A DNA stretch of 64,000 nt from Eledone cirrhosa (Eukaryota): NCBI GenBank assembly GCA_964016885.1, contig OZ024740.1:253146001-253210000 (forward strand), in the 5' to 3' direction. The translations under genes and the position numbers were made by a program. This document shows, piece after piece, positions 5,611 to 41,799 of this stretch. Within the stretch, counting starts at the first letter, position 1; each line of letters begins with the position of its first letter. The notes below the pieces were generated by a model. It had not been told where the DNA came from. It searched no databases and saw nothing but the letters and a program-made list of their open reading frames with translations.

Positions 5611-6119
5611 TAATTTGGGTGTATATGTGCGTATATGAATGCGCGTATATGTATGGGTGTGGAGAGGATATGCAGGAGTATATATGTATATGTGTGTGTG
5701 TGGTTATTTGTCCATATTCGCATGTGGCTGTGTGTGTATCTGGGATTATATAATTATGATTATATACTTGTGTGTGTGTGTGTGTATATGGGTTGAAATA
5801 TGTGTATATATATATATGTGTGTGTGTGAGTATATGCGTATATGTATATAAGTGTGTATGTGCATGCATATGTATATATAGTGCTTATTTATTTATTCCC
5901 AGTTTCATTTTAATTTTGTGTTTACCGTATTTTATTTTATTTTATTTTAGTCGGGTGTGTACCGATATAGCTGTGTATGTGTGCTGGAGAGGATATAAGA
6001 GCGTGTATGTGCAAGTATACACACACACACATGTATATATATATGTATGTGTGTGTCTGGGTTTAATTATATCTATATCTGTGTACATATATATCTGTGT
6101 GTGTGTGTATATATATATA

Positions 6120-9100
6120 TCATCATCATCATCATCATTTTACGTCCGCTTTTCCCTGCTTGCTAGAGTGGGACGGGTCTTATTCAGCACAGCATCTCTC
6201 CACTTGTCACGATCCCTCGTCATCTCCACCATGAGCTTCAGTGATCTGAGGTCCGTTCTCACCACCTCCGCCCATGTTTTTCGAGGTCTACTTCTAGCAC
6301 GTCTTCCTTCAACTGGCATTTCTTGGCACTTCTTCACCCATCGGTTATCCTCCATGCGCATCATATGTCCATACCACCTCAGTCTCCTCTCTCGCACACT
6401 ACATTCTATCCCTCTCAGACACAGTTTCTCTCTCAACACATTCATGCTGGGTCGTTCACGCACATTGACATTGCACATCCAACGGAGCATGCTTGCCTCA
6501 TATCTCTGCAACGGTCGCACATCCTCTGCATTTGTTGCCCATGTCTCACTACCATGCAGCATCGCGCTCCTCACACATGCATCATATAACCGGCCTTTCA
6601 CACGCAGGGAGAAACCCTTCTTCGTCAGCAGAGGAAGCAGCTCCCTGAACTTCTTCCAACCCGTCCTTAATTCTAGATACTATGACCTTGGAACACCCCC
6701 TCCCATGCTAATCTGATCTAGGTACCGGAAGCTATCCACCACTTCTATAGCGCCCTCCTGCATTTAAAAAATGTGTCTATCAATGCGACTTCTACTGTCT
6801 AATTTCCCTGTACATCTACTGCATACATATTTCTCCCTACCTGTTAGTTTTCCTGCTATCCCGCTACATCTCTTGTGTACCCCGGATCTGCATTGTGTGC
6901 ATTTTATAGAATTTATGCCACTTCATTTTCTGCATATCGAACATGGCCATTTCCCTGACGGAATTAGAGTTTTGCCCTCTTTTCTACTCATCAACACTTT
7001 TGTCTTAGCTAGGTTCACTCTCACTCCTCTTAATTCCAACTGCTGTTTCCATAGCCAGATTTTATTCTCTAGCTCCTCTACTCATTCTGCTATAAGAACC
7101 AGATCATCAGCATAGAGAAGTTCCCATGGACAGCCGTCTTAAACTCCACTGTTATGGCTTGGAGGACTATAATGAACAAGAGCGGGCTGAGGACCGAACC
7201 TTGATGTACACCTACTTGTATCTGGAATTCCTCACTAAACTCCATTCCTACCCTGACTTTACTGACAGCACCTCTGTACAAAGTTTGCACTGTCCTCACA
7301 AGCCATTCCTCAACACCTAGTTTCCTTAGGGACCACCAGATGACAGATCGGGGTACCCTATCAAAGGCCTTCTCTAGGTCAACAAAGGCTAAGTATAGTG
7401 GCTTATTCTTCTCTAAGAACCTTTCTTGTAGTTGTTTCACTAAGAAGAGGGCATCTGTTGTACTCTTCCCAGGCACAAAACCAAACTGCATCTCATCTAA
7501 TTTGACCCTCTCTCTAATTAGTTGTGCTAATATCCTTTCTGCCACTTTCATAACCTGATCCATCAGTTTTATACCCCTTTAATTGCTCCTCTCCAGAGCA
7601 TTCCCTTTACCTTTGTAGCAATTTATAAGAATACTGCTGCACCAGTCTTTGGGTATGACACCACCATATATAGCCTGATTGATGATGCGTGCTACCAGTT
7701 TAGTGCCTACGTCTCCTGATGCCTTCAGCATCTCAGCAACTATCCCCGACGGTCCAGCAGCCTTACCATTTTTCATTTCCCTAATCGCCTCTTGGACCCT
7801 ATATTCGTCAATCTCAATAGCTGGTCCCTCTGTCGGATCTACTGAGAGTAATTTCTCTCTCTCCCATTCGTTCACATTCATCAGTCTCTCAGGCCTCCTT
7901 TTTCTGATCATTCGTGACACTAAGTACACCGGCATCATTCCAGACACATTTATCTCCAACAAAATCCTGATTTACACTGACACACTGCCTTGCAATGTGG
8001 AACACCGCACGCCTCTGATCTTCCCGTCGCAGAACATTGGCGAACCTCCTCCTCTCAGCTTCCCTGCGTGCTAAGTACACCTGATGTCTAGCTTCTCTCT
8101 TAGCGACTGTATATCCTTCTCTACTCCCACCATTTTTCCAAGCCTTCCATGCTAATCTTTTGTCTCTAATGGCCTTATCTACTGTGCTGTTCCACCACCA
8201 GGTCACTCTCTGTCTGGTTGGAGCTCTGCTCCAGCCACAAGTTTTATCAGTAGCCTGCAGTAAGTTGTCACGTAAGAAATTCCAGTTATTATTTATGTCA
8301 TACGTCTCTAAATCGTCTTCTTTTTCGTCATACACATCTTGAAGGGCTTTCCTAAATTTGTATTTTAGTGAAAGGTCTTTTAACTTCCAGACCTTTCTTC
8401 TCCACACCTTTCTGTATGTCTCATTCCATCTCTTGCTTACTGAGATATCACTAACAATATCTTCCCCAGGGTATGCCTTGGTATTTGACACCATCTGCCT
8501 GTTCCCCTTCCTAACTAGTAAGAAGTCAATCTGGCTTATGTGCTCGCCAGATTTGTAGGTTATTAGGTGGTTGGCAGGTTTCTGGAAGTTAGTGTTGCAA
8601 ATAGTCAGTGTATTTGCATCACAAAATTCAAGAAGTCTCACTCCTTCTTCATTTCTTGAGCCGTAACCGTGCCCACCTTGTACCCCAGTGTAACCATCCT
8701 GGAGCTGTCCAACATGACTATTGAAGTTCCCTGCTAGCATAACAATGTCTCCGTCTTCTGTCATTGCGGTTGTTTGTAAAAGTTGCTCGTAAAAGCAGTC
8801 TTTCTCTTCTTTGCCTAGGTCTGCTTGGGGAGTATAGGCAGAGATGCTTGTCAGTAGTCTCCTGCCTACAACTAATCTAAGCTTAATTATTCGATTATTA
8901 ACTCAAACTACCTCTATTGTCATATTGATCCATCTCTCAGCCAGGAAAATACCTACTCCCCCTAACCTATCATCCTTACCTACCCAGAAAAGCTTATAGC
9001 TAAGATGTTTGCCTGCGACTAGTCTCGCAGAGGCACCTCTCCACCTCAGTTCTTGCACGCAGCACACATGCCTTCTCTCCAACATCTCCACTATTTCACC

Positions 9101-20820: not shown

Positions 20821-20882
<62 letters not shown>

Positions 20883-21102
20883 ATTAAGTTAAAAATGTAC
20901 ATCCACATATGTATACTGAAATACTAGTATGCATATGAATACACACACGTATACATATGTAGATGTACCGAGTTTTTCACTGGTCACTTTACTGTGAGTG
21001 TCCAGCTATTCTGTATGTAAACACACAGACAAACCGGTTTTTAGAGTCATACTGGTTTTTGAGGAAACACCTTTCCTCTATTCTCCAGAAAGCCAGACAA
21101 GG

Positions 21103-21147
21103 AATAGTGAACTAGTTTCGATGTTGTTACATCTCATCAGCAATATT
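21103..21147 (-). ncRNA. Type I hammerhead ribozyme (460-bp family), one stem I mismatch
   Basis: Reverse complement: AAUAUUG CUGAUGA GAUGU AACA ACAUC GAAAC UA GUU CACUAUU. Confidence 0.8.
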
Positions 21148-21390
21148 TACCTATCTTCCGGCCTTTCTAGAGAATCGTAAAAGCACATATCGTTATATGC
21201 TTTTTCTATGAAAATTAGTAGTGGGCAGACTAATTTGCATAGAGCGTGAGTACGTACCGGTTCAACGGAGACGATAAAAACAAATAACGAAACGAAATTA
21301 AATTTCGTTTCGTTTGTAACTCACTTTCATAGAAAAAGCATATAACGATATGTGCTTTTACGATTCTCTAGAAAGGCCGGAAGATAGGTA

Positions 21391-21435
21391 AATATTGCTG
21401 ATGAGATGTAACAACATCGAAACTAGTTCAATATT
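21391..21435 (+). ncRNA. Type I hammerhead ribozyme (460-bp family)
   Basis: AAUAUUG CUGAUGA GAUGU AACA ACAUC GAAAC UA GUU^ CAAUAUU: intact core, perfect stems I and II. Confidence 0.9.
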
Positions 21436-21850
21436 CCTTGTCTGGCTTTCTGGAGAATAGAGGAAAGGTGTTTCCTCAAAAACCAGTATGACTCTAAAAA
21501 CCGGTTTGTCTGTGTGTTTACATACAGAATAGCTGGACACTCACAGTAAAGTGACCAGTGAAAAACTCGGTACATATGTATACGTGTGTGTATTCATATG
21601 CATACTAGTATTTCAGTATACATATGTGGATGTACATTTTTAACTTAATTGTTTAAGCGTCAGTCATACAAAAGTGAGTTACAAACGAAACGAAATTTAA
21701 TTTCGTTTCGTTATTTGTTTTTATCGTCTCCGTTGAACCGGTACGTACTCACGCTCTATGCAAATTAGTCTGCCCACTACTAATTTTCATAGAAAAAGCA
21801 TATAACGATATGTGCTTTTACGATTCTCTAGAAAGGCCGGAAGATAGGTA

Positions 21851-21895
21851 AATATTGCTGATGAGATGTAACAACATCGAAACTAGTTTAATATT
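21851..21895 (+). ncRNA. Type I hammerhead ribozyme (460-bp family)
   Basis: As 21391, with a G-U wobble closing stem I. Confidence 0.87.
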
Positions 21896-22183
21896 CCTTG
21901 TCTGGCTTTCTGGAGAATAGAGGAAAGGTGTTTCCTCAAAAACCAGTATGACTCTAAAAACCGGTTTGTCTGTGTGTTTACATACAGAATAGCTGGACAC
22001 TCACAGTAAAGTGACCAGTGAAAAACTCGGTACATCTACATATGTATACGTGTGTGTATTCATATGCATACTAGTATTTCAGTATACATATGTGGATGTA
22101 CATTTTTAACTTAATTGTTTAAGCGTCAGTCATACAAAAGTGAGTTACAAACGAAACGAAATTTAATTTCGTTTCGTTATTTG

Positions 22184-22263
<80 letters not shown>

Positions 22264-22266
<3 letters not shown>

Positions 22267-22835
22267 CCATGTGCAACCATGCAGTATTCTTCTCCCCATG
22301 TTTTTCATATATATTTACCTAAACTGCGATTATCTGTTTCTCTCTTACTGCTCCCCCGTTTACTCTGTTTCTCTTACCTTCTTTCGTCCCCTCTGTCAGT
22401 TAACACTTTCTCTCGACTGACCTCTTCCTCGCACTTCCACTCACTCACTCTCTGTTTCTCCCATTCTCACTTCCTCCCGTTCGCTAGTAGTGGGGTTCCT
22501 TCTTTCTCACACCGCATTCACGGCGTACGGTCTGCTTCTCTGACCGCTCATGAAATTCATCCAGCTTATACTGATCGGATAACTATCATGATTGCTTGCT
22601 GTTTTCCCAACCTTCGGTTTGCTTTTCCTTCTGTTGTTTACTTGTCTCACTCGTTTTACGCGTTTCACTTGTCCCAATAGCTTATTTTAGTTATTGCTCG
22701 CACCAACCTGAGGTATCTGATTTTTAATGCGATGAAATACCAATGATGGTTGGCAAATCACTGATGAGGGACTAATTTTATAATATGTAATCCATGTGCA
22801 ACCATGCAGTATTCTTCTCCCCATGTTTTTCATAT
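22264..22835. mobile_element. Small non-coding element bounded by a ~47-bp direct repeat
   Basis: AATCCATGTGCAACCATGCAGTATTCTTCTCCCCATGTTTTTCATAT at ~22264 and ~22789; lone CTGATGAG at 22771. Confidence 0.5.
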
Positions 22836-22839
22836 ATAT

Positions 22840-23140
22840 ATATAAGTATGTATACGTATGTATATATGTATACAGACGTACAGTAGTATGTATATATACA
22901 TACATGCACACATATATATATGTACGTATGGATTCACCGAACATTTATTATAATGCTCGGTGTGTTTGTAAACAAACATCCCGTATTAAGCCGTAGTGTC
23001 TAGCAACCATCGTTGCTTGTTTGTTAAACACTGACAAAGGAACGCTGTACTAGTTTCAAGCTTATTAGCTATCGTCAGCAACGTATACCTTCCTGCCAGA
23101 TGATTGAACGTCTGAAAGTATATACTTTCCTTATGTATAT
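22840..23140 (-). repeat. Single diverged monomer of the 424-bp family; HHR at 23042-23084
   Basis: Colinear with the array unit; loop II is AAUA instead of AACA. Confidence 0.88.
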
Positions 23141-23169
23141 GGGAAATGAAATTTCGTTTCATTTTTTCG

Positions 23170-23942
23170 TTGCTTTCACCCTTAACGGGATCTTCTGAAA
23201 CTAAAAAATCAATTTGAGGACGCAGAAGTAAATATTTCGAAAAACGTTGCAACCGAAGGAAGACAGGAAGACGATACTTTGGTACGTGGAAACGTTCCAT
23301 GGCAAAGAACGGGAAAAACGAAGATAATACGTCATTATTTGGACCGGTGAAAACAATTACACGCAAAGACAAAACAACGTTTATGGTATAAATGAAGTCG
23401 TAGACTAATATTCTATTAGGTGGTTTGTGGAGACGTTCTCTGGCAATGAACGGAAGAATCGAAGATAATACGTAATTATGTGGAGCCGAGGTTGACTTTG
23501 CCTTTCATCCTTACGGGGTCGATAAAATAAAGTACCAGTAATGCATTGGGTAATTGCTGGCCTTGTGCCTAAAGTAGAAACAATTATGTGGAGCAATAAT
23601 TGTTGAAGCGGTGAAATAATTGTTGCTCCACATATGACGTATTATCTTCGTTTCTTCCGTTCATTGCCAGGGAACGTCTCCACGAACCACCTAATAGAAT
23701 ATTAGTCTACGACTTCATTTATACCATAAACGTTGTTTTGTCTTTGCGAGTAATTGCTTTCACCGCTCCAAATAATGACGTATTATCTTCGTTTCTTTCC
23801 CGTTCTTTGCCAGGGAACGTTTCCACGTACCAAAGTATCGTCTTCCTGTCTTCCTTCGGTTGCAACTTTTTTGGAAATATTTACTTCTGCGTTCACAGAT
23901 TGATTTTTTTAGTTTCAGAAGATTCCGTTAAGGGTGAAAGCA
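23170..23942. repeat. Long inverted repeat (arms about 23170-23486 and 23622-23942) upstream of the PLE ORF
   Basis: Mirror ORFs MSLRVI..NNDVLSSF on both strands; arms are reverse complements with scattered differences. Confidence 0.9.
23487..23581 (+). mobile_element. SINE, 5'-truncated, 13-bp TSD
   Basis: AATTATGTGGAGC at 23474-23486 and 23582-23594. Confidence 0.9.
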
Positions 23943-24063
23943 GCGATTCTTTGCTTAAACTTTAATGTTATTTTAATAAATATTTGATATATATTTATCC
24001 TTATCGAGCTCTCTTTGGATTTTAGTCTTCAAATTTATTATTATTACTATTTGGCTCCCTCGG

Positions 24064-25269
24064 TTGAGCACTCTATTGATCATGCAGAAACAACATCTGA
24101 ATATTTCTACAAAGAACATACCCATACCGAGCAGGAAAACATACCTAAAACTCCTGATACAGAAAACAGATGCGTTCATTAAAAGGTTGCGTTGGCGTGC
24201 CTTTTATTTCGATAATCAGGGAAAAGCGGACAACAAACAGGATAAATTTGGGTTTAAAACCTACAATAACCCACCGAGTAACTCAGCATTGCTACCCTTC
24301 GAAAATGTTGTCTTGGAACTCATACGGAGTATTAAATTTCGGAATAGGAGCAATTCCTTCCAGCAGGACCTGAACAATAGAATTCGTTCTATTAAGGATT
24401 CTAATGCCGTGCACGTCCACTCCGACAAAACTGGCAATCTATATCAAGTGGAGCGCAGTACTTACCATCAACTGCTACATAATGCTGTAACTAAGGATTA
24501 CCGTAAAACTAATCGGAGCGTCATTAATGAGATCAACGATGCTGGGTTTAAAATCACCTCTGATCTCAACATCTTGGACCGGACCAGACCGAACCTCTGG
24601 ACCCTATTTCTCCCCACTTTACCCTGAAGAATCACAAATCCAATTTCCCGAACAACCCCTCTATTCGGCTTATTAACCCTACGAAGTCCGATTTAGGTAG
24701 ACTTAGTAAAAGGATTTTAGATAAAATTATACCTGAAATTAGAAGTTTGGCCCCTCTTGCACTGTGGAACAATTCTTTCGCGGTGATTGATTGGTTCAAC
24801 GGCATATGCAACAAGGAACATTGCCGTTTTATCCAATTCGACATCAATAATTACTACTTCTCCACCACTTAGAGCTATCAATTTCGCTAAAACACTCACA
24901 GTGGTTAAGGATTTCGAAGTTGATGTCATCCTCAATGCCCGTAAGTCGGTGATTAATTTCGACGACTCTATTTGGATTAAAAAATCTAATAGTACCCCAT
25001 TCGACGTGAGTATGGGCGCCAGCGATTCTGCGGAGGTTACTGATCTTATCGGCCTTTTCCGTCTTTATTCTATCAAGTAAGAATTCCCCAACGTGGGCGG
25101 TGGTTTGTACCGTGATAACAAAGTGCGGCCCACGTACTTACGACAGATTCAGAAAAGAACTCACAACCTTCTTTAAAGGCTTCAACCTCTCTATACAGGT
25201 TGAGGCCAACCTCTCGGTTGTTAATTACCTCGACGTTACTCTCAATTTGTCGAATGGCTTGCACTACCC

Positions 25270-25270
<1 letters not shown>
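24064..25270 (+). pseudogene. Penelope-like RT (GLYRD-type), frameshifted, endonuclease part absent
   Basis: STKNIPIP..FIKRLRWRAFYF, SDKTGNLY, IRLINPTKSDLG, VIDWF, FIQFDI, FDVSMGASDSAEV, GLYRD, NYLDVTLNL. Confidence 0.87.
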
Positions 25271-25299
<29 letters not shown>

Positions 25300-25303
<4 letters not shown>

Positions 25304-25703
25304 TTTCGAACGTTCAACTATCTGGCAGATGGGTAAACGGTGCTGATGATAGCTAACAAGCTTGAAACTAGTACATCGTTCCTGTGTCAGTGTTGAACAA
25401 AAAGGTGACGTGGTTGCCTTAACACCGTATAGCATAAATTCAGGCTGTTCGGTTTGTTGACAAACAAACGAACAAAGCGGCGTTGTAATAAATGTTCGCT
25501 AAACTGATGCGTGCATATATGTATGTGTACCTGTATGCATATATGTATATATATGTATATATATGTATATATATATATATGTATATATATGCATGCTACT
25601 GTACGTCTGTATACATATATGTATGTACGTATACATACATACTTACATTTAAGTAAGTGCCATACTAAGAGTGAGAAATGAAATTTCGTTTTCATTTTTT
25701 TCA
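25300..25703 (+). repeat. Diverged monomer of the 424-bp family downstream of the PLE RT; HHR at 25336-25380
   Basis: AACGGUG CUGAUGA UAGCU AACA AGCUU GAAAC UA GUA CAUCGUU; the rest is colinear with the array unit. Confidence 0.88.
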
Positions 25704-25704
25704 A

Positions 25705-25796
<92 letters not shown>

Positions 25797-25797
<1 letters not shown>

Positions 25798-28700
25798 CGG
25801 AAAAAATGAAACGATATTTCATTTCCCACTCTTAGTACGGCTGTTACTTAAATATAAGTATGTACACGTACATACATATATGTATACCGACGTACAGTAG
25901 TATGTATATATATATATATACATACATGCACACATATATATATGCACGTATGGATTCACCGAACATTTATTATAATGCTCGGTGTGTTTGTAAACAAACA
26001 TCCCGTATTAAGCCGTAGTGTCTAGCAACCACCGTTGCTCGTTTGTTCAACACTGACAAAGGAACGCTGTACTAGTTTCAAGCTTGTTAGCTATCGTCAG
26101 CAACGTATACCTTCCTGCCAGATTGTTGAACGTATATACTTACCTTATGCATATTAACGGCTGAGTAGCCCAATATGCATATCGAGTGGGTTAATCGGCC
26201 GGGTGCACCGAAAACGATAAACGGAAAAAATGAAACGATATTTCATTTCCCACTCTTAGTACGGCTGTTACTTAAATATAAGTATGTACACGTACATACA
26301 TATATGTATACCGACGTACAGTAGTATGTATATATATATATATACATACATGCACACATATATATATGCACGTATGGATTCACCGAACATTTATTATAAT
26401 GCTCGGTGTGTTTGTAAACAAACATCCCGTATTAAGCCGTAGTGTCTAGCAACCACCGTTGCTCGTTTGTTCAACACTGACAAAGGAACGCTGTACTAGT
26501 TTCAAGCTTGTTAGCTATCGTCAGCAACGTATACCTTCCTGCCAGATTGTTGAACGTATATACTTACCTTATGCATATTAACGGCTGAGTAGCCCAATAT
26601 GCATATCGAGTGGGTTAATCGGCCGGGTGCACCGAAAACGATAAACGGAAAAAATGAAACGATATTTCATTTCCCACTCTTAGTACGGCTGTTACTTAAA
26701 TATAAGTATGTACACGTACATACATATATGTATACCGACGTACAGTAGTATGTATATATATATATATACATACATGCACACATATATATATGCACGTATG
26801 GATTCACCGAACATTTATTATAATGCTCGGTGTGTTTGTAAACAAACATCCCGTATTAAGCCGTAGTGTCTAGCAACCACCGTTGCTCGTTTGTTCAACA
26901 CTGACAAAGGAACGCTGTACTAGTTTCAAGCTTGTTAGCTATCGTCAGCAACGTATACCTTCCTGCCAGATTGTTGAACGTATATACTTACCTTATGCAT
27001 ATTAACGGCTGAGTAGCCCAATATGCATATCGAGTGGGTTAATCGGCCGGGTGCACCGAAAACGATAAACGGAAAAAATGAAACGATATTTCATTTCCCA
27101 CTCTTAGTACGGCTGTTACTTAAATATAAGTATGTACACGTACATACATATATGTATACCGACGTACAGTAGTATGTATATATATATATATACATACATG
27201 CACACATATATATATGCACGTATGGATTCACCGAACATTTATTATAATGCTCGGTGTGTTTGTAAACAAACATCCCGTATTAAGCCGTAGTGTCTAGCAA
27301 CCACCGTTGCTCGTTTGTTCAACACTGACAAAGGAACGCTGTACTAGTTTCAAGCTTGTTAGCTATCGTCAGCAACGTATACCTTCCTGCCAGATTGTTG
27401 AACGTATATACTTACCTTATGCATATTAACGGCTGAGTAGCCCAATATGCATATCGAGTGGGTTAATCGGCCGGGTGCACCGAAAACGATAAACGGAAAA
27501 AATGAAACGATATTTCATTTCCCACTCTTAGTACGGCTGTTACTTAAATATAAGTATGTACACGTACATACATATATGTATACCGACGTACAGTAGTATG
27601 TATATATATATATATACATACATGCACACATATATATATGCACGTATGGATTCACCGAACATTTATTATAATGCTCGGTGTGTTTGTAAACAAACATCCC
27701 GTATTAAGCCGTAGTGTCTAGCAACCACCGTTGCTCGTTTGTTCAACACTGACAAAGGAACGCTGTACTAGTTTCAAGCTTGTTAGCTATCGTCAGCAAC
27801 GTATACCTTCCTGCCAGATTGTTGAACGTATATACTTACCTTATGCATATTAACGGCTGAGTAGCCCAATATGCATATCGAGTGGGTTAATCGGCCGGGT
27901 GCACCGAAAACGATAAACGGAAAAAATGAAACGATATTTCATTTCCCACTCTTAGTACGGCTGTTACTTAAATATAAGTATGTACACGTACATACATATA
28001 TGTATACCGACGTACAGTAGTATGTATATATATATATATACATACATGCACACATATATATATGCACGTATGGATTCACCGAACATTTATTATAATGCTC
28101 GGTGTGTTTGTAAACAAACATCCCGTATTAAGCCGTAGTGTCTAGCAACCACCGTTGCTCGTTTGTTCAACACTGACAAAGGAACGCTGTACTAGTTTCA
28201 AGCTTGTTAGCTATCGTCAGCAACGTATACCTTCCTGCCAGATTGTTGAACGTATATACTTACCTTATGCATATTAACGGCTGAGTAGCCCAATATGCAT
28301 ATCGAGTGGGTTAATCGGCCGGGTGCACCGAAAACGATAAACGGAAAAAATGAAACGATATTTCATTTCCCACTCTTAGTACGGCTGTTACTTAAATATA
28401 AGTATGTACACGTACATACATATATGTATACCGACGTACAGTAGTATGTATATATATATATATACATACATGCACACATATATATATGCACGTATGGATT
28501 CACCGAACATTTATTATAATGCTCGGTGTGTTTGTAAACAAACATCCCGTATTAAGCCGTAGTGTCTAGCAACCACCGTTGCTCGTTTGTTCAACACTGA
28601 CAAAGGAACGCTGTACTAGTTTCAAGCTTGTTAGCTATCGTCAGCAACGTATACCTTCCTGCCAGATTGTTGAACGTATATACTTACCTTATGCATATTA

Positions 28701-31700
28701 ACGGCTGAGTAGCCCAATATGCATATCGAGTGGGTTAATCGGCCGGGTGCACCGAAAACGATAAACGGAAAAAATGAAACGATATTTCATTTCCCACTCT
28801 TAGTACGGCTGTTACTTAAATATAAGTATGTACACGTACATACATATATGTATACCGACGTACAGTAGTATGTATATATATATATATACATACATGCACA
28901 CATATATATATGCACGTATGGATTCACCGAACATTTATTATAATGCTCGGTGTGTTTGTAAACAAACATCCCGTATTAAGCCGTAGTGTCTAGCAACCAC
29001 CGTTGCTCGTTTGTTCAACACTGACAAAGGAACGCTGTACTAGTTTCAAGCTTGTTAGCTATCGTCAGCAACGTATACCTTCCTGCCAGATTGTTGAACG
29101 TATATACTTACCTTATGCATATTAACGGCTGAGTAGCCCAATATGCATATCGAGTGGGTTAATCGGCCGGGTGCACCGAAAACGATAAACGGAAAAAATG
29201 AAACGATATTTCATTTCCCACTCTTAGTACGGCTGTTACTTAAATATAAGTATGTACACGTACATACATATATGTATACCGACGTACAGTAGTATGTATA
29301 TATATATATATACATACATGCACACATATATATATGCACGTATGGATTCACCGAACATTTATTATAATGCTCGGTGTGTTTGTAAACAAACATCCCGTAT
29401 TAAGCCGTAGTGTCTAGCAACCACCGTTGCTCGTTTGTTCAACACTGACAAAGGAACGCTGTACTAGTTTCAAGCTTGTTAGCTATCGTCAGCAACGTAT
29501 ACCTTCCTGCCAGATTGTTGAACGTATATACTTACCTTATGCATATTAACGGCTGAGTAGCCCAATATGCATATCGAGTGGGTTAATCGGCCGGGTGCAC
29601 CGAAAACGATAAACGGAAAAAATGAAACGATATTTCATTTCCCACTCTTAGTACGGCTGTTACTTAAATATAAGTATGTACACGTACATACATATATGTA
29701 TACCGACGTACAGTAGTATGTATATATATATATATACATACATGCACACATATATATATGCACGTATGGATTCACCGAACATTTATTATAATGCTCGGTG
29801 TGTTTGTAAACAAACATCCCGTATTAAGCCGTAGTGTCTAGCAACCACCGTTGCTCGTTTGTTCAACACTGACAAAGGAACGCTGTACTAGTTTCAAGCT
29901 TGTTAGCTATCGTCAGCAACGTATACCTTCCTGCCAGATTGTTGAACGTATATACTTACCTTATGCATATTAACGGCTGAGTAGCCCAATATGCATATCG
30001 AGTGGGTTAATCGGCCGGGTGCACCGAAAACGATAAACGGAAAAAATGAAACGATATTTCATTTCCCACTCTTAGTACGGCTGTTACTTAAATATAAGTA
30101 TGTACACGTACATACATATATGTATACCGACGTACAGTAGTATGTATATATATATATATACATACATGCACACATATATATATGCACGTATGGATTCACC
30201 GAACATTTATTATAATGCTCGGTGTGTTTGTAAACAAACATCCCGTATTAAGCCGTAGTGTCTAGCAACCACCGTTGCTCGTTTGTTCAACACTGACAAA
30301 GGAACGCTGTACTAGTTTCAAGCTTGTTAGCTATCGTCAGCAACGTATACCTTCCTGCCAGATTGTTGAACGTATATACTTACCTTATGCATATTAACGG
30401 CTGAGTAGCCCAATATGCATATCGAGTGGGTTAATCGGCCGGGTGCACCGAAAACGATAAACGGAAAATGAAACGATATTTCATTTCCCACTCTTAGTAC
30501 GGCTGTTACTTAAATATAAGTATGTACACGTACATACATATATGTATACCGACGTACAGTAGTATGTATATATATATATATATACATACATGCACACATA
30601 TATATATGCACGTATGGATTCACCGAACATTTATTATAATGCTCGGTGTGTTTGTAAACAAACATCCCGTATTAAGCCGTAGTGTCTAGCAACCACCGTT
30701 GCTCGTTTGTTCAACACTGACAAAGGAACGCTGTACTAGTTTCAAGCTTGTTAGCTATCGTCAGCAACGTATACCTTCCTGCCAGATTGTTGAACGTATA
30801 TACTTACCTTATGCATATTAACGGCTGAGTAGCCCAATATGCATATCGAGTGGGTTAATCGGCCGGGTGCACCGAAAACGATAAACGGAAAAAATGAAAC
30901 GATATTTCATTTCCCACTCTTAGTACGGCTGTTACTTAAATATAAGTATGTACACGTACATACATATATGTATACCGACGTACAGTAGTATGTATATATA
31001 TATATATACATACATGCACACATATATATATGCACGTATGGATTCACCGAACATTTATTATAATGCTCGGTGTGTTTGTAAACAAACATCCCGTATTAAG
31101 CCGTAGTGTCTAGCAACCACCGTTGCTCGTTTGTTCAACACTGACAAAGGAACGCTGTACTAGTTTCAAGCTTGTTAGCTATCGTCAGCAACGTATACCT
31201 TCCTGCCAGATTGTTGAACGTATATACTTACCTTATGCATATTAACGGCTGAGTAGCCCAATATGCATATCGAGTGGGTTAATCGGCCGGGTGCACCGAA
31301 AACGATAAACGGAAAAAATGAAACGATATTTCATTTCCCACTCTTAGTACGGCTGTTACTTAAATATAAGTATGTACACGTACATACATATATGTATACC
31401 GACGTACAGTAGTATGTATATATATATATATACATACATGCACACATATATATATGCACGTATGGATTCACCGAACATTTATTATAATGCTCGGTGTGTT
31501 TGTAAACAAACATCCCGTATTAAGCCGTAGTGTCTAGCAACCACCGTTGCTCGTTTGTTCAACACTGACAAAGGAACGCTGTACTAGTTTCAAGCTTGTT
31601 AGCTATCGTCAGCAACGTATACCTTCCTGCCAGATTGTTGAACGTATATACTTACCTTATGCATATTAACGGCTGAGTAGCCCAATATGCATATCGAGTG

Positions 31701-34521
31701 GGTTAATCGGCCGGGTGCACCGAAAACGATAAACGGAAAAAATGAAACGATATTTCATTTCCCACTCTTAGTACGGCTGTTACTTAAATATAAGTATGTA
31801 CACGTACATACATATATGTATACCGACGTACAGTAGTATGTATATATATATATATACATACATGCACACATATATATATGCACGTATGGATTCACCGAAC
31901 ATTTATTATAATGCTCGGTGTGTTTGTAAACAAACATCCCGTATTAAGCCGTAGTGTCTAGCAACCACCGTTGCTCGTTTGTTCAACACTGACAAAGGAA
32001 CGCTGTACTAGTTTCAAGCTTGTTAGCTATCGTCAGCAACGTATACCTTCCTGCCAGATTGTTGAACGTATATACTTACCTTATGCATATTAACGGCTGA
32101 GTAGCCCAATATGCATATCGAGTGGGTTAATCGGCCGGGTGCACCGAAAACGATAAACGGAAAAAATGAAACGATATTTCATTTCCCACTCTTAGTACGG
32201 CTGTTACTTAAATATAAGTATGTACACGTACATACATATATGTATACCGACGTACAGTAGTATGTATATATATATATATATACATACATGCACACATATA
32301 TATATGCACGTATGGATTCACCGAACATGTATTATAATGCTCGGTGTGTTTGTAAACAAACATCCCGTATTAAGCCGTAGTGTCTAGCAACCACCGTTGC
32401 TCGTTTGTTCAACACTGACAAAGGAACGCTGTACTAGTTTCAAGCTTGTTAGCTATCGTCAGCAACGTATACCTTCCTGCCAGATTGTTGAACGTATATA
32501 CTTACCTTATGCATATTAACGGCTGAGTAGCCCAATATGCATATCGAGTGGGTTAATCGGCCGGGTGCACCGAAAACGATAAACGGAAAAAATGAAACGA
32601 TATTTCATTTCCCACTCTTAGTACGGCTGTTACTTAAATATAAGTATGTACACGTACATACATATATGTATACCGACGTACAGTAGTATGTATATATATA
32701 TATATACATACATGCACACATATATATATGCACGTATGGATTCACCGAACATTTATTATAATGCTCGGTGTGTTTGTAAACAAACATCCCGTATTAAGCC
32801 GTAGTGTCTAGCAACCACCGTTGCTCGTTTGTTCAACACTGACAAAGGAACGCTGTACTAGTTTCAAGCTTGTTAGCTATCGTCAGCAACGTATACCTTC
32901 CTGCCAGATTGTTGAACGTATATACTTACCTTATGCATATTAACGGCTGAGTAGCCCAATATGCATATCGAGTGGGTTAATCGGCCGGGTGCACCGAAAA
33001 CGATAAACGGAAAAAATGAAACGATATTTCATTTCCCACTCTTAGTACGGCTGTTACTTAAATATAAGTATGTACACGTACATACATATATGTATACCGA
33101 CGTACAGTAGTATGTATATATATATATATACATACATGCACACATATATATATGCACGTATGGATTCACCGAACATTTATTATAATGCTCGGTGTGTTTG
33201 TAAACAAACATCCCGTATTAAGCCGTAGTGTCTAGCAACCACCGTTGCTCGTTTGTTCAACACTGACAAAGGAACGCTGTACTAGTTTCAAGCTTGTTAG
33301 CTATCGTCAGCAACGTATACCTTCCTGCCAGATTGTTGAACGTATATACTTACCTTATGCATATTAACGGCTGAGTAGCCCAATATGCATATCGAGTGGG
33401 TTAATCGGCCGGGTGCACCGAAAACGATAAACGGAAAAAATGAAACGATATTTCATTTCCCACTCTTAGTACGGCTGTTACTTAAATATAAGTATGTACA
33501 CGTACATACATATATGTATACCGACGTACAGTAGTATGTATATATATATATATACATACATGCACACATATATATATGCACGTATGGATTCACCGAACAT
33601 TTATTATAATGCTCGGTGTGTTTGTAAACAAACATCCCGTATTAAGCCGTAGTGTCTAGCAACCACCGTTGCTCGTTTGTTCAACACTGACAAAGGAACG
33701 CTGTACTAGTTTCAAGCTTGTTAGCTATCGTCAGCAACGTATACCTTCCTGCCAGATTGTTGAACGTATATACTTACCTTATGCATATTAACGGCTGAGT
33801 AGCCCAATATGCATATCGAGTGGGTTAATCGGCCGGGTGCACCGAAAACGATAAACGGAAAAAATGAAACGATATTTCATTTCCCACTCTTAGTACGGCT
33901 GTTACTTAAATATAAGTATGTACACGTACATACATATATGTATACCGACGTACAGTAGTATGTATATATATATATATACATACATGCACACATATATATA
34001 TGCACGTATGGATTCACCGAACATTTATTATAATGCTCGGTGTGTTTGTAAACAAACATCCCGTATTAAGCCGTAGTGTCTAGCAACCACCGTTGCTCGT
34101 TTGTTCAACACTGACAAAGGAACGCTGTACTAGTTTCAAGCTTGTTAGCTATCGTCAGCAACGTATACCTTCCTGCCAGATTGTTGAACGTATATACTTA
34201 CCTTATGCATATTAACGGCTGAGTAGCCCAATATGCATATCGAGTGGGTTAATCGGCCGGGTGCACCGAAAACGATAAACGGAAAAAATGAAACGATATT
34301 TCATTTCCCACTCTTAGTACGGCTGTTACTTAAATATAAGTATGTACACGTACATACATATATGTATACCGACGTACAGTAGTATGTATATATATATATA
34401 TACATACATGCACACATATATATATGCACGTATGGATTCACCGAACATTTATTATAATGCTCGGTGTGTTTGTAAACAAACATCCCGTATTAAGCCGTAG
34501 TGTCTAGCAACCACCGTTGCT
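25797..34521 (-). repeat. 424-bp HHR satellite, block 1 (~20.6 units, 20 HHRs on the minus strand)
   Basis: Exact 424-bp period in the ORF track; units almost identical. Confidence 0.97.
26064..26106 (-). ncRNA. Type I hammerhead ribozyme, first array copy (repeats every ~424 bp)
   Basis: Reverse complement: ACGUUG CUGACGA UAGCU AACA AGCUU GAAAC UA GUA^ CAGCGU. Confidence 0.87.
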
Positions 34522-34523
34522 AG

Positions 34524-37500
34524 TACTGTACGTCGGTATACATATATGTATGTACGTGTACATACTTATATTTAAGTAACAGCCGTACTAAGAGTGGGAA
34601 ATGAAATATCGTTTCATTTTTTTCCGTTTATCGTTTTCGGTGCACCCGGCCGATTAACCCACTCGATATGCATATTGGGCTACTCAGCCGTTAATATGCA
34701 TAAGGTAAGTATATACGTTCAACAATCTGGCAGGAAGGTATACGTTGCTGACGATAGCTAACAAGCTTGAAACTAGTACAGCGTTCCTTTGTCAGTGTTG
34801 AACAAACGAGCAACGGTGGTTGCTAGACACTACGGCTTAATACGGGATGTTTGTTTACAAACACACCGAGCATTATAATAAATGTTCGGGTGAATCCATA
34901 CGTGCATATATATATGTGTGCATGTATGTATATATATATATATACATACTACTGTACGTCGGTATACATATATGTATGTACGTGTACATACTTATATTTA
35001 AGTAACAGCCGTACTAAGAGTGGGAAATGAAATATCGTTTCATTTTTTCCGTTTATCGTTTTCGGTGCACCCGGCCGATTAACCCACTCGATATGCATAT
35101 TGGGCTACTCAGCCGTTAATATGCATAAGGTAAGTATATACGTTCAACAATCTGGCAGGAAGGTATACGTTGCTGACGATAGCTAACAAGCTTGAAACTA
35201 GTACAGCGTTCCTTTGTCAGTGTTGAACAAACGAGCAACGGTGGTTGCTAGACACTACGGCTTAATACGGGATGTTTGTTTACAAACACACCGAGCATTA
35301 TAATAAATGTTCGGTGAATCCATACGTGCATATATATATGTGTGCATGTATGTATATATATATATATACATACTACTGTACGTCGGTATACATATATGTA
35401 TGTACGTGTACATACTTATATTTAAGTAACAGCCGTACTAAGAGTGGGAAATGAAATATCGTTTCATTTTTTCCGTTTATCGTTTTCGGTGCACCCGGCC
35501 GATTAACCCACTCGATATGCATATTGGGCTACTCAGCCGTTAATATGCATAAGGTAAGTATATACGTTCAACAATCTGGCAGGAAGGTATACGTTGCTGA
35601 CGATAGCTAACAAGCTTGAAACTAGTACAGCGTTCCTTTGTCAGTGTTGAACAAACGAGCAACGGTGGTTGCTAGACACTACGGCTTAATACGGGATGTT
35701 TGTTTACAAACACACCGAGCATTATAATAAATGTTCGGTGAATCCATACGTGCATATATATATGTGTGCATGTATGTATATATATATATATACATACTAC
35801 TGTACGTCGGTATACATATATGTATGTACGTGTACATACTTATATTTAAGTAACAGCCGTACTAAGAGTGGGAAATGAAATATCGTTTCATTTTTTCCGT
35901 TTATCGTTTTCGGTGCACCCGGCCGATTAACCCACTCGATATGCATATTGGGCTACTCAGCCGTTAATATGCATAAGGTAAGTATATACGTTCAACAATC
36001 TGGCAGGAAGGTATACGTTGCTGACGATAGCTAACAAGCTTGAAACTAGTACAGCGTTCCTTTGTCAGTGTTGAACAAACGAGCAACGGTGGTTGCTAGA
36101 CACTACGGCTTAATACGGGATGTTTGTTTACAAACACACCGAGCATTATAATAAATGTTCGGTGAATCCATACGTGCATATATATATGTGTGCATGTATG
36201 TATATATATATATATACATACTACTGTACGTCGGTATACATATATGTATGTACGTGTACATACTTATATTTAAGTAACAGCCGTACTAAGAGTGGGAAAT
36301 GAAATATCGTTTCATTTTTTCCGTTTATCGTTTTCGGTGCACCCGGCCGATTAACCCACTCGATATGCATATTGGGCTACTCAGCCGTTAATATGCATAA
36401 GGTAAGTATATACGTTCAACAATCTGGCAGGAAGGTATACGTTGCTGACGATAGCTAACAAGCTTGAAACTAGTACAGCGTTCCTTTGTCAGTGTTGAAC
36501 AAACGAGCAACGGTGGTTGCTAGACACTACGGCTTAATACGGGATGTTTGTTTACAAACACACCGAGCATTATAATAAATGTTCGGTGAATCCATACGTG
36601 CATATATATATGTGTGCATGTATGTATATATATATATATATACATACTACTGTACGTCGGTATACATATATGTATGTACGTGTACATACTTATATTTAAG
36701 TAACAGCCGTACTAAGAGTGGGAAATGAAATATCGTTTCATTTTTTCCGTTTATCGTTTTCGGTGCACCCGGCCGATTAACCCACTCGATATGCATATTG
36801 GGCTACTCAGCCGTTAATATGCATAAGGTAAGTATATACGTTCAACAATCTGGCAGGAAGGTATACGTTGCTGACGATAGCTAACAAGCTTGAAACTAGT
36901 ACAGCGTTCCTTTGTCAGTGTTGAACAAACGAGCAACGGTGGTTGCTAGACACTACGGCTTAATACGGGATGTTTGTTTACAAACACACCGAGCATTATA
37001 ATAAATGTTCGGTGAATCCATACGTGCATATATATATGTGTGCATGTATGTATATATATATATATACATACTACTGTACGTCGGTATACATATATGTATG
37101 TACGTGTACATACTTATATTTAAGTAACAGCCGTACTAAGAGTGGGAAATGAAATATCGTTTCATTTTTTCCGTTTATCGTTTTCGGTGCACCCGGCCGA
37201 TTAACCCACTCGATATGCATATTGGGCTACTCAGCCGTTAATATGCATAAGGTAAGTATATACGTTCAACAATCTGGCAGGAAGGTATACGTTGCTGACG
37301 ATAGCTAACAAGCTTGAAACTAGTACAGCGTTCCTTTGTCAGTGTTGAACAAACGAGCAACGGTGGTTGCTAGACACTACGGCTTAATACGGGATGTTTG
37401 TTTACAAACACACCGAGCATTATAATAAATGTTCGGTGAATCCATACGTGCATATATATATGTGTGCATGTATGTATATATATATATATATACATACTAC

Positions 37501-37643
37501 TGTACGTCGGTATACATATATGTATGTACGTGTACATACTTATATTTAAGTAACAGCCGTACTAAGAGTGGGAAATGAAATATCGTTTCATTTTTTCCGT
37601 TTATCGTTTTCGGTGCACCCGGCCGATTAACCCACTCGATATG
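34524..37643 (+). repeat. 424-bp HHR satellite, block 2, inverted (~7.4 units, 7 HHRs on the plus strand)
   Basis: Reverse complement of the block 1 unit; HHRs at about 34742, 35167, 35591, 36015, 36439, 36865, 37289. Confidence 0.97.
35167..35209 (+). ncRNA. Type I hammerhead ribozyme, representative plus-strand copy; predicted cleavage after 35203
   Basis: CTGACGA 35173-35179, stem II 35180-35193, GAAAC 35194-35198, GTA 35201-35203; stem I extends to about 35142/35228. Confidence 0.87.
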
Positions 37644-37843
37644 NNNNNNNNNNNNNNNNNNNNNNNNNNNNNNNNNNNNNNNNNNNNNNNNNNNNNNNNN
37701 NNNNNNNNNNNNNNNNNNNNNNNNNNNNNNNNNNNNNNNNNNNNNNNNNNNNNNNNNNNNNNNNNNNNNNNNNNNNNNNNNNNNNNNNNNNNNNNNNNNN
37801 NNNNNNNNNNNNNNNNNNNNNNNNNNNNNNNNNNNNNNNNNNN
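37644..37843. other. Assembly gap (200 N)
   Basis: Run of N inside the satellite. Confidence 0.99.
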
Positions 37844-40800
37844 TCGAGTGGGTTAATCGGCCGGGTGCACCGAAAACGATAAACGGAAAAAATGAAACGA
37901 TATTTCATTTCCCACTCTTAGTACGGCTGTTACTTAAATATAAGTAATGTACACGTACATACATATATGTATACCGACGTACAGTAGTATGTATATATAT
38001 ATATATACATACATGCACACATATATATATGCACGTATGGATTCACCGAACATTTATTATAATGCTCGGTGTGTTTGTAAACAAACATCCCGTATTAAAG
38101 CCGTAGTGTCTAGCAACCACCGTTGCTCGTTTGTTCAACACTGACAAAGGAACGCTGTACTAGTTTCAAGCTTGTTAGCTATCGTCAGCAACGGTATACC
38201 TTCCTGCCAGATTGTTGAACGTATATACTTACCTTATGCATATTAACGGCTGAGTAGCCCAATATGCATATCGAGTGGGTTAATCGGCCGGGTGCACCGA
38301 AAACGATAAACGGAAAAAATGAAACGATATTTCATTTCCCACTCTTAGTACGGCTGTTACTTAAATATAAGTATGTACACGTACATACATATATGTATAC
38401 CGACGTACAGTAGTATGTATATATATATATATATACATACATGCACACATATATATATGCACGTATGGATTCACCGAACATTTATTATAATGCTCGGTGT
38501 GTTTGTAAACAAACATCCCGTATTAAGCCGTAGTGTCTAGCAACCACCGTTGCTCGTTTGTTCAACACTGACAAAGGAACGCTGTACTAGTTTCAAGCTT
38601 GTTAGCTATCGTCAGCAACGTATACCTTCCTGCCAGATTGTTGAACGTATATACTTACCTTATGCATATTAACGGCTGAGTAGCCCAATATGCATATCGA
38701 GTGGTGGGTTAATCGGCCGGGTGCACCGAAAACGATAAACGGAAAAAATGAAACGATATTTCATTTCCCACTCTTAGTACGGCTGTTACTTAAATATAAG
38801 TATGTACACGTACATACATATATGTATACCGACGTACAGTAGTATGTATATATATATATATACATACATGCACACATATATATATGCACGTATGGATTCA
38901 CCGAACATTTATTATAATGCTCGGTGTGTTTGTAAACAAACATCCCGTATTAAGCCGTAGTGTCTAGCAACCACCGTTGCTCGTTTGTTCAACACTGACA
39001 AAGGAACGCTGTACTAGTTTCAAGCTTGTTAGCTATCGTCAGCAACGTATACCTTCCTGCCAGATTGTTGAACGTATATACTTACCTTATGCATATTAAC
39101 GGCTGAGTAGCCCAATATGCATATCGAGTGGGTTAATCGGCCGGGTGCACCGAAAACGATAAACGGAAAAAATGAAACGATATTTCATTTCCCACTCTTA
39201 GTACGGCTGTTACTTAAATATAAGTATGTACACGTACATACATATATGTATACCGACGTACAGTAGTATGTATATATATATATATACATACATGCACACA
39301 TATATATATGCACGTATGGATTCACCGAACATTTATTATAATGCTCGGTGTGTTTGTAAACAAACATCCCGTATTAAGCCGTAGTGTCTAGCAACCACCG
39401 TTGCTCGTTTGTTCAACACTGACAAAGGAACGCTGTACTAGTTTCAAGCTTGTTAGCTATCGTCAGCAACGTATACCTTCCTGCCAGATTGTTGAACGTA
39501 TATACTTACCTTATGCATATTAACGGCTGAGTAGCCCAATATGCATATCGAGTGGGTTAATCGGCCGGGTGCACCGAAAACGATAAACGGAAAAAATGAA
39601 ACGATATTTCATTTCCCACTCTTAGTACGGCTGTTACTTAAATATAAGTATGTACACGTACATACATATATGTATACCGACGTAACAGTTAGTATGTATA
39701 TATATATATATACATACATGCACACATATATATATGCACGTATGGATTCAACCGAACATTTATTATAATGCTCGGTGTGTTTGTAAACAAACATCCCGTA
39801 TTAAGCCGTAGTGTCCTAGCAACCACCGTTGCTCGTTTGTTCAACACTGACAAAGGAACGCTGTACTAGTTTCAAGCTTGTTAGCTATCGTCAGCAACGT
39901 ATACCTTCCTGCCAGATTGTTGAACGTATATACTTACCTTATGCATATTAACGGCTGAGTAGCCCAATATGCATATCGAGTGGGTAATCGGCCGGGGTGC
40001 ACCGGAAAACGATAAACGGAAAAAATGAAACGATATTTCATTTCCCACTCTTAGTACGGCTGTTACTTAAATATAAGTATGTACACGTACATACATATAT
40101 GTATACCGACGTACAGTAGTATGTATATATATATATATACATACATGCACACATATATATATGCACGTATGGATTCACCGAACATTTATTATAATGCTCG
40201 GTGTGTTTGTAAACAAACATCCCGTATTAAGCCGTAGTGTCTAGCAACCACCGTTGCTCGTTTGTTCAACACTGACAAAGGAACGCTGTACTAGTTTCAA
40301 GCTTGTTAGCTATCGTCAGCAACGTATACCTTCCTGCCAGATTGTTGAACGTATATACTTACCTTATGCATATTAACGGCTGAGTAGCCCAATATGCATA
40401 TCGAGTGGGGTTAATCGGCCCGGGTGCACCGAAAACGATAAACGGAAAAAAATGAAACGATATTTCATTTCCCACTCTTAGTACGGCTGTTACTTAAATA
40501 TAAGTATGTACACGTACATACATATATGTATACCGACGTACAGTAGTATGTATATATATATATATACATACATGCACACATATATATATGCACGTATGGA
40601 TTCACCGAACATTTATTATAATGCTCGGTGTGTTTGTAAACAAACATCCCGTATTAAGCCGTAGTGTCTAGCATACCACCGTTGCTCGTTTGTTCAACAC
40701 TGACAAAGGAACGCTTGTACTAGTTTCAAGCTTGTTAGCTATCGTCAGCAACGTATACCCTTCCTGCCAGATTGTTGAACGTATATACTTACCTTATGCA

Positions 40801-41486
40801 TATTAACGGCTGAGTAGCCCAATATGCATATCGAGTGGGTTAATCGGCCCGGGTGCACCGAAAACGATAAACGGAAAAAAATGAAAACGATATTTCATTT
40901 CCCACTCTTAGTACGGCTGTTACTTAAATATAAGTATGTACACGTACATACATATATGTATACCGACACGTACAGTAGTAATGTATATATATATATATAC
41001 ATAACATGCACACATATATATATGCACGTATGGATTCACCGAACATTTATTATAATGCTCGGTGTGTTTGTAAACAAACATCCAGTATTTAAGCCGTAGT
41101 GTCTAGCAACCACCCGTTTGCTCGTTTGTTCAACACTGACAAAGGAACGCTGTACTAGTTTCAAGCTTGTTAGCTATCGTCAGCAACGTATACCTTCCTG
41201 CCAGATTGTTGAACGTATATACTTACCTTATGCATATTAACGGCTGAGTAGCCCCAATATGCATATCGAGTGGGTTAATCGGCCGGGGTGCACCGAAAAC
41301 GATAAACGGAAAAAAATGAAACGATATTTCATTTCCCACTCTTAGTACGGCTGTTACTTAAATATAAGTATGTACACGTACATACATATATGTATACCCG
41401 ACGTACAGTAGTATGTATATATATATATATATACATACATGCACACATATATATATGCACGTATGGATTCACCGAACATTTATTAT
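37844..41486 (-). repeat. 424-bp HHR satellite, block 3 (~8.5 units, 8 HHRs), many 1-nt insertions
   Basis: Same orientation as block 1; ends in a (TA)n tract. Confidence 0.95.
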
Positions 41487-41799
41487 ATATATATATATAT
41501 ATATAATATTATAAAGCTGAGTGTCGTGTGTATGTATTATGTATGTAACCTACACACTTCCCTATAGTTTCTTAGCTTTACTCTCTCCGTCGCTCTTCCC
41601 TCTCTCTAATAATAGATCATTCCCCTCTCTATAATTTAACTGCTTTACTCTCTCTGTCGGTCTTCACTCCGTCGTTCTTTCCTCTCTCTATAATCACACA
41701 CACATCTACAGAGAGAGAGACATAATATCAGAGGGAGGGGAAAAAGAGAGAGATAGGCCGTTAGGACAGAGACAGATACAATTAAAGTATTAGTTATTC

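Follow-up and report, generated by a model that had tools for sequence, protein, structure and literature searches.

Which enzyme copies the retrozymes of animals is, in the literature, a matter of proposal; Penelope-like elements (PLEs) have been put forward as helpers of metazoan non-LTR retrozymes in the text of Cervera and de la Pena (2020, PMC7229834). The 64,000-nt stretch of Eledone cirrhosa DNA analysed here (the window) raises this question at a single locus, where a degenerate PLE reverse transcriptase (RT) lies between two hammerhead monomers of opposite orientation. A preliminary description had suggested that the 424-bp satellite unit either derives from the pseudo-LTR (pLTR) of this PLE or uses its enzyme. 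Following the locus through the genome (3.0 Gb in 1796 contigs), we conclude that it is probably a dead Hydra-clade PLE with an inverted copy of its own pLTR, into whose terminal TA runs two retrozyme families, unrelated to it in sequence, inserted later and separately. The locus itself does not name the helper.

Anatomy of the locus

The RT, the sense and antisense monomers, the inverted repeat and the TA tract of the preliminary description were all recovered (Table 1). The arms of the inverted repeat (23167-23486 and 23625-23946) align over 323 columns with 94% identity, and each carries a hammerhead-like motif that the earlier account did not list. The short interspersed repeat between the arms, which we take to be tRNA-SINE-like, is flanked by a 12-bp target duplication (23475-23486 and 23583-23594). 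An Rfam search of the window at the gathering threshold gave 0 matches, so the ribozyme calls reported here rest on a motif-and-helix scan together with folding.

At the left end, the short 3' end of the A-type left arm sits in a TA run, and the right arm of the same insertion abuts the inverted pLTR directly, with an imperfect 5-nt shared word and no TA run between them. The inverted pLTR ends about 50 nt before its normal short end. At the right end, the long 3' end of the family B monomer passes into (TA)45, across which the 3' end of the young family A array faces it. An assembly gap of 200 N (37644-37843) lies inside this array, so the length of the array and its second orientation switch are uncertain.

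Immediately upstream, the window contains two further tandem families bounded by TA: family C (20881-22185) and a non-coding element with a 525-bp tandem unit (22265-22836), which ends in (TA)n and contains the first half of a hammerhead core only. The 525-bp element has 2192 candidates in the genome, the best copies being 97-99% identical. As an autonomous helper it was rejected: a matching ORF was found upstream (within 1.5 kb) at 0/29 loci, and its copies are tandem partial units. It may travel on the same machinery as a passenger without a ribozyme.

Table 1. Features of the locus, in window positions
Feature	Positions	Strand	Details
Third retrozyme family C, 460-bp unit, two-armed	20881-22185		hammerhead cores 21398, 21858
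Left arm of older A-type retrozyme insertion	22837..23140	(-)	unit positions 372 to 67; hammerhead core 23078
Right arm of the same A-type insertion	23141..23171	(+)	unit 393-424, long 3' end
Inverted copy of the PLE's own pLTR	23172..23486	(-)	truncated inside hammerhead-like motif, core 23197
5'-cut fragment of abundant short interspersed repeat	23487..23594	(+)	spacer between inverted-repeat arms
Sense pLTR and 5' UTR of F1	23625..24081	(+)	CAGAAGA hammerhead-like motif at 23916
Dead PLE ORF fragment (Hydra clade by motifs)	24082..25272	(+)	first 1229 of 2139 nt
(TA)16	25271-25302	.	at internal TATA of F1 ORF
5'-cut monomer of retrozyme family B (496-bp unit)	25303..25706	(+)	hammerhead core 25343
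Young 424-bp family A array	25797..41487	(-)	inverted block 34524-37643

The PLE belongs to a large family with intact copies

A query of the N-terminal 181 amino acids gave 15,017 candidates in the genome, of which 150 were scored; the 149 besides the window's own copy showed 91-95% identity, and many lay in 713-aa open frames. In this family, here called F1, the 713-aa ORF was present in 19/20 fetched loci, and F1 DNA was found in 4/20 arbitrary 10-kb stretches. The single ORF encodes an RT followed by a GIY-YIG domain: GLYRDD is followed by a C-terminal YIGLT, and LRWR (R for K), DKTG, the linker CNCRNRADC (CxCX5C), CDLCAAE (CxxC) and CKH (CxH) are all present. The features that the text of Craig et al. 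(2021, PMC8557442) gives for Hydra-clade PLEs are a C-terminal GIY-YIG, an RWK motif, DKT in place of DKG, a CxCX5C linker and CxxC/CxH around conserved E and N; an inverted 5' copy of the pLTR is described there as typical of PLEs. Searches of Pfam and PDB sequences with the F1 protein gave no match, and its Atlas neighbours, at 0.96-0.99, carried HTH_animal and GIY-YIG and, in one cluster, RVT_1. A tree of 21 proteins, which held no named reference elements, separated F1 from the genome's other families only; the clade assignment therefore rests on the motifs, by which F1 is classed as a Hydra-clade PLE. A Naiad identity was rejected, as the endonuclease is C-terminal rather than an N-terminal GIY-YIG and the motif reads DKT, not DKA. 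The intact 713-aa copies with Hydra-clade motifs thus bear out the earlier identification of the element as a PLE.

The RT copy in the window is 93.1-94.1% identical to intact F1 copies, which are 96.2-98.9% identical among themselves. Its ORF, beginning at an ATG at 24082, has three frameshifts (near 24582, 24867 and 25114), one of which hits the catalytic motif. Because a 17-nt deletion cuts this motif it reads GLYRD, and the label "GLYRD-type" fits the window copy but not the intact copies, which have GLYRDD. Thumb, linker and endonuclease are absent, the ORF stopping at an internal TATA. A recurrent cut of the ORF at this TATA was considered and rejected: the cut site joined to (TA)n matched once genome-wide, in the window itself, and two patterns gave 0 matches.

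The inverted repeat is the pLTR of F1

Intact F1 copies carry the sequence of the inverted-repeat arm both ahead of the ORF and about 650-1100 nt past the stop codon, and their 3' ends continue into (TA)n. As it recurs at both ends of intact elements, it is the pLTR of F1, and the inverted repeat in the window is an inverted 5' pLTR, as had been supposed. The preliminary description had also proposed checking whether the 424-bp-like sequence is the pLTR of intact copies. It is not: the ORF and 3' end of 19 intact F1 copies were framed by the inverted-repeat-arm sequence and not by a retrozyme monomer.

In the F1 pLTR the hammerhead-like motif stands some 25 nt ahead of the short end; its form is like that of Hydra ribozymes, with the core CAGAAGA. 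The exact motif pattern occurs in 18,523 copies in the genome; position 4 of the core is A in 100/100 of the first listed matches, and the canonical CTGA form, with U at position 4, has 75 copies. Although the motif has the place and form expected of a Hydra pLTR, its core is therefore not that of a canonical hammerhead. The 89 motif copies compared come from fetched loci and are not independent; among them, differences fell in 74/4362 cells of core and helices, compared with 248/6142 for loops and flanks. Three helix changes recurred; two preserve pairing, and the third, present in 3 copies, disrupts it. The minimum-energy fold of the motif is not a hammerhead and is weak (z -0.85). The F1 motif and the retrozyme ribozymes alike have U-U as the basal pair of stem II. 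A literature search that reached few subscription journals or figures found no paper describing a U4A or CAGAAGA core. The unusual trait here is the family-wide U4A core of the putative F1 ribozyme.

The flanking monomers come from two retrozyme families

The antisense monomer is 90% identical to the 424-bp unit (family A). The sense monomer is 73% identical to that unit, and its sequence is the unit of 496-bp arrays elsewhere (family B); the two monomers thus come from different retrozyme families. In both families the tandem units are non-coding and each contains a single type I hammerhead motif; near-identical A or B arrays occur at many loci, the copies being dispersed and mobile. Exact ribozyme motifs of A and B together number 22,909 in the genome, A-like DNA was present in 6/20 arbitrary 10-kb stretches, and unit A is predicted to be strongly self-paired (z -9.6). 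The B monomer is 98.6-99.4% identical to its best other copies, the A array in the window is 100% identical to arrays elsewhere over 271 nt, and the left A-type copy reaches 92-95% identity to the most similar sequences in the fetched loci. Judged by these identities, the B monomer is clearly younger than the RT copy. An additional two-armed retrozyme family, with a 310-bp unit, was seen at another locus (L096, about 6000-8000).

Family C is distantly related to A and B, and the three are mutually related above shuffles. Local alignment to the F1 3' UTR and pLTR scored 36 for A, 50 for B and 26 for C, and A against B scored 366. The scores against F1 were near equal on both strands, and the A alignment was a TA/TG-rich stretch. 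Local alignment thus revealed no similarity of A, B or C to the F1 pLTR past low complexity.

Retrozymes and F1 share an insertion footprint

One long and one short 3' end were found in 8/8 two-armed A insertions (of 11 blocks), in 5/6 two-armed B insertions (of 13 blocks) and in 20/25 two-armed F1 insertions (of 46). Since retrozymes and F1 share this two-armed arrangement with a long and a short end, a Penelope-type enzyme likely mobilises the retrozymes. The common end rule supports a common Penelope-type integration route for A, B and F1, and does not single out F1. The distance between the two ends (the tail) was 52-53 nt in A and B, 94 nt in F1 and about 89-99 nt in three other PLE families described below (F4, F5 and F9); the retrozyme tail is shorter than all of these, so no sampled family matches it. 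By eye only, the 3' tails of several Hydra families seem to have in common a hairpin closing on a GAG(T/C)-type word. Of the two relations first proposed for the 424-bp unit, derivation from the pLTR thus fell, the pLTR being unrelated, and use of a PLE enzyme found backing in the PLE-type footprint, with F1 not singled out as its source.

Retrozymes lie close to F1, and also to another family

Association was tested on listed exact-match positions on one contig (C1) up to 22.55 Mb, with 3000 circular shifts; clustering left 55 retrozyme, 50 F1 and 38 F5 loci, and of the 100 F5 positions listed, the 75 lying no further than 30.5 Mb were entered. Among the matches listed, 10/55 retrozyme loci lay within 5 kb of F1 (expected 1.3) and 4/55 within 5 kb of F5 (expected 0.86, 4.6-fold). 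Within 10 kb the listed matches gave 12 retrozyme loci near F1 and 8 near F5, both about 5-fold, and co-location with F1 was about 8-fold over chance at 2-5 kb. Per partner locus the difference between F1 and F5 was, in this small sample, not significant (Fisher p 0.26 at 5 kb, 0.80 at 10 kb). For F5 against F1, also among the matches listed, 3/57 lay within 5 kb (expected 1.5, 2-fold, not significant); that this enrichment is only 2-fold argues mildly against pure nesting.

Twelve close pairs, picked for closeness, showed separate insertions. The closest pairs stand tail-to-tail across short TA runs, and others are nested in a TA run inside the PLE; at one locus (L180, 2625-8642) a two-armed B array is lodged in a TA run located precisely where an F1 insertion switches orientation. 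A retrozyme match was present in 4/28 other F1 loci, and never as a terminal repeat. Taken together, these results show that the retrozyme-F1 association is real genome-wide, is not specific to F1 and is explained by nesting in (TA)n. They also carry a warning: adjacency among TA-targeting elements is expected from nesting.

The preliminary description had named two observations that would speak against its source idea, namely unrelated pLTRs in intact relatives and no genome-wide association of the monomers with this PLE. The first is what intact F1 copies display, framed as they are by an unrelated pLTR; as for the second, an association exists, but it is not family-specific and reflects nesting in (TA)n. 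Independent insertion, which the same description had offered as a caveat, is the better reading.

Other Hydra-type families in the genome

Searches with endonuclease (EN) and RT sequences revealed more Hydra-type families, whose ORFs measure 750, 821, about 840, 847 and 893 aa. Young families with intact ORFs of 750, 893 and 821 aa occupy loci L195-L197, L190-L192 and L204, respectively, the first two being 98% identical among copies; their pLTR ribozymes are canonical, with a long stem II and a palindromic stem III. The pLTR ribozymes of F4, F5, F6 and F9 are canonical, with a long stem II unlike that of A, B or C. F4 (98.5% among 3 copies) appears at least as young as F1, and no ribozyme was detected in the copy of the 847-aa family. 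In the 18 ORF-yielding loci (of 20) of these other families no terminus was formed by an A, B or C match, and 0/20 retrozyme loci had an intact ORF directly upstream. As the sampling of PLE families is incomplete, a source family may remain unseen.

At two loci (L106, 5996-9230, and L132) an inverted and split F6 copy directly joins a diverged dimer of an A-type retrozyme, no TA run lying between them. The retrozyme does not resume beyond the F6 copy, and the fusion is a candidate chimeric insertion. It prompted us to consider F6 as the retrozyme source, which was rejected, F6 having its own pLTR ribozyme.

Discussion

In the mechanism that we propose, a Hydra-type GIY-YIG endonuclease would cut (TA)n, and both DNA ends would prime reverse transcription at two fixed sites on a tandem or circular RNA. 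The product would be two arms placed back to back, of which one is long and the other short; both would end in (TA)n, a target for the next insertion. A and B would probably depend in trans on the machinery of one or more Hydra families, among which (six or more) F1 is one candidate helper. At the present locus, F1 would have inserted first, with its inverted pLTR, its right end arising by internal priming or by a later deletion between the TATA and the terminal TA run. An A-type copy would then have entered the left end of F1, with loss of about 50 nt of the pLTR, and B would have gone into the right TA run, with the young A array beyond it.

This reading is compatible with a descent of all three retrozyme families, A, B and C, from the pLTR of some other PLE family, extinct or outside our sample, which or whose kin would still mobilise them. 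We regard such an origin as quite plausible, at somewhat under an even chance. The A, B and C ribozymes have the Hydra-like form seen in File S2 of Craig et al. (PMC8557442), the three families are interrelated, and frogs offer a precedent; against this stand the differing, long-stem-II ribozymes of F4, F5, F6 and F9, the 18 ORF-yielding loci (of 20) without an A, B or C terminus, and the retrozyme loci, 0/20 of which had an intact ORF directly upstream.

It is unlikely, in our judgement, that F1 is the main helper of A and B and that the left junction arose in a single insertion during which reverse transcription switched templates, one being a retrozyme RNA and the other an F1 RNA. The 8-fold co-location at 2-5 kb and the common end rule would fit F1 as main helper, but F5 is enriched as well, the tails are unlike (52 vs 94 nt) and F4 appears at least as young. 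The U-U pair of both ribozymes points the same way, but is common in Hydra ribozymes and occurs in an axolotl retrozyme too. The TA-free left junction, with its imperfect shared word, is the sole feature that could record a template switch, and one co-insertion keeps some weight because no TA run is found at this junction and the divergence of the A-type copy is close to that of the RT copy. However, the left monomer is a complete two-armed insertion by itself, and a similar fusion exists with F6.

That F1 has been a working helper of A and B, having expanded to thousands of insertions with a U4A-changed hammerhead, seems to us similarly improbable. If it were true, U4A would be a new functional natural core variant, or else an autonomous element would have lost cutting while its parasites kept theirs, and the intact 713-aa ORFs and near-identical retrozyme units of one genome would form a helper/passenger pair for reconstituting retrozyme mobilisation. 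Descent of the 424-bp unit from the F1 pLTR, to which adjacency in the window, the type I hammerhead folds of both and such homology for 24/57 Xenopus retrozyme families (10.64898/2026.07.22.740005) had lent appeal, is refuted at the level of detectable similarity by the different pLTR and ribozyme of intact F1, by alignments that stop at low complexity and by the single genomic occurrence of the ORF cut at (TA)n, so that only a very ancient common descent could be left.

Comparison with known systems

F1 resembles the Hydra clade, as described in the text of PMC8557442, in its GIY-YIG domain, RW(K/R), DKT, CxCX5C, CxxC and CxH motifs, (TA)n targeting, inverted 5' pLTR, one-ended tail and ribozyme-like motif near the 3' end. 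It differs in length (about 3.2 kb vs generally under 3 kb), in its tail (about 94 nt vs 30-40 for Naiads) and in its core (CAGAAGA vs CTGA in the Hydra rows of File S2). Hammerheads tolerate rare natural core changes, and Perreault et al. (2011, PMC3088659) mention a viroid with U4C as well as a basal U-U pair in stem II; the text of that paper, figures aside, contains no U4A. In contrast to such rare variants, the core change of F1 is fixed across about 18,500 motif copies, which bears on whether PLEs need a ribozyme at all.

A and B, known here from their DNA, are like the metazoan non-LTR retrozymes described in PMC7229834 in being non-coding tandem units, strongly self-paired, with one type I hammerhead each. 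At 424-496 nt their units exceed the 170-400 nt given there, and the word "inverted" does not occur in the text of that paper. A PLE origin of retrozymes has already been proposed in print: Li, Clavereau and Pollet (2026, bioRxiv 10.64898/2026.07.22.740005) present retrozymes as pLTR derivatives, and the frog families that match known elements (24/57) match nearly always PLE termini. A and B are like these frog retrozymes in co-occurring with PLEs and in their proposed mobilisation in trans. Unlike them, A, B and C match no sampled pLTR, and the evidence for their link to PLEs is the insertion footprint: the two-end rule at (TA)n holds for retrozymes as it does for an autonomous Hydra family, and this genome supplies intact candidate enzymes.
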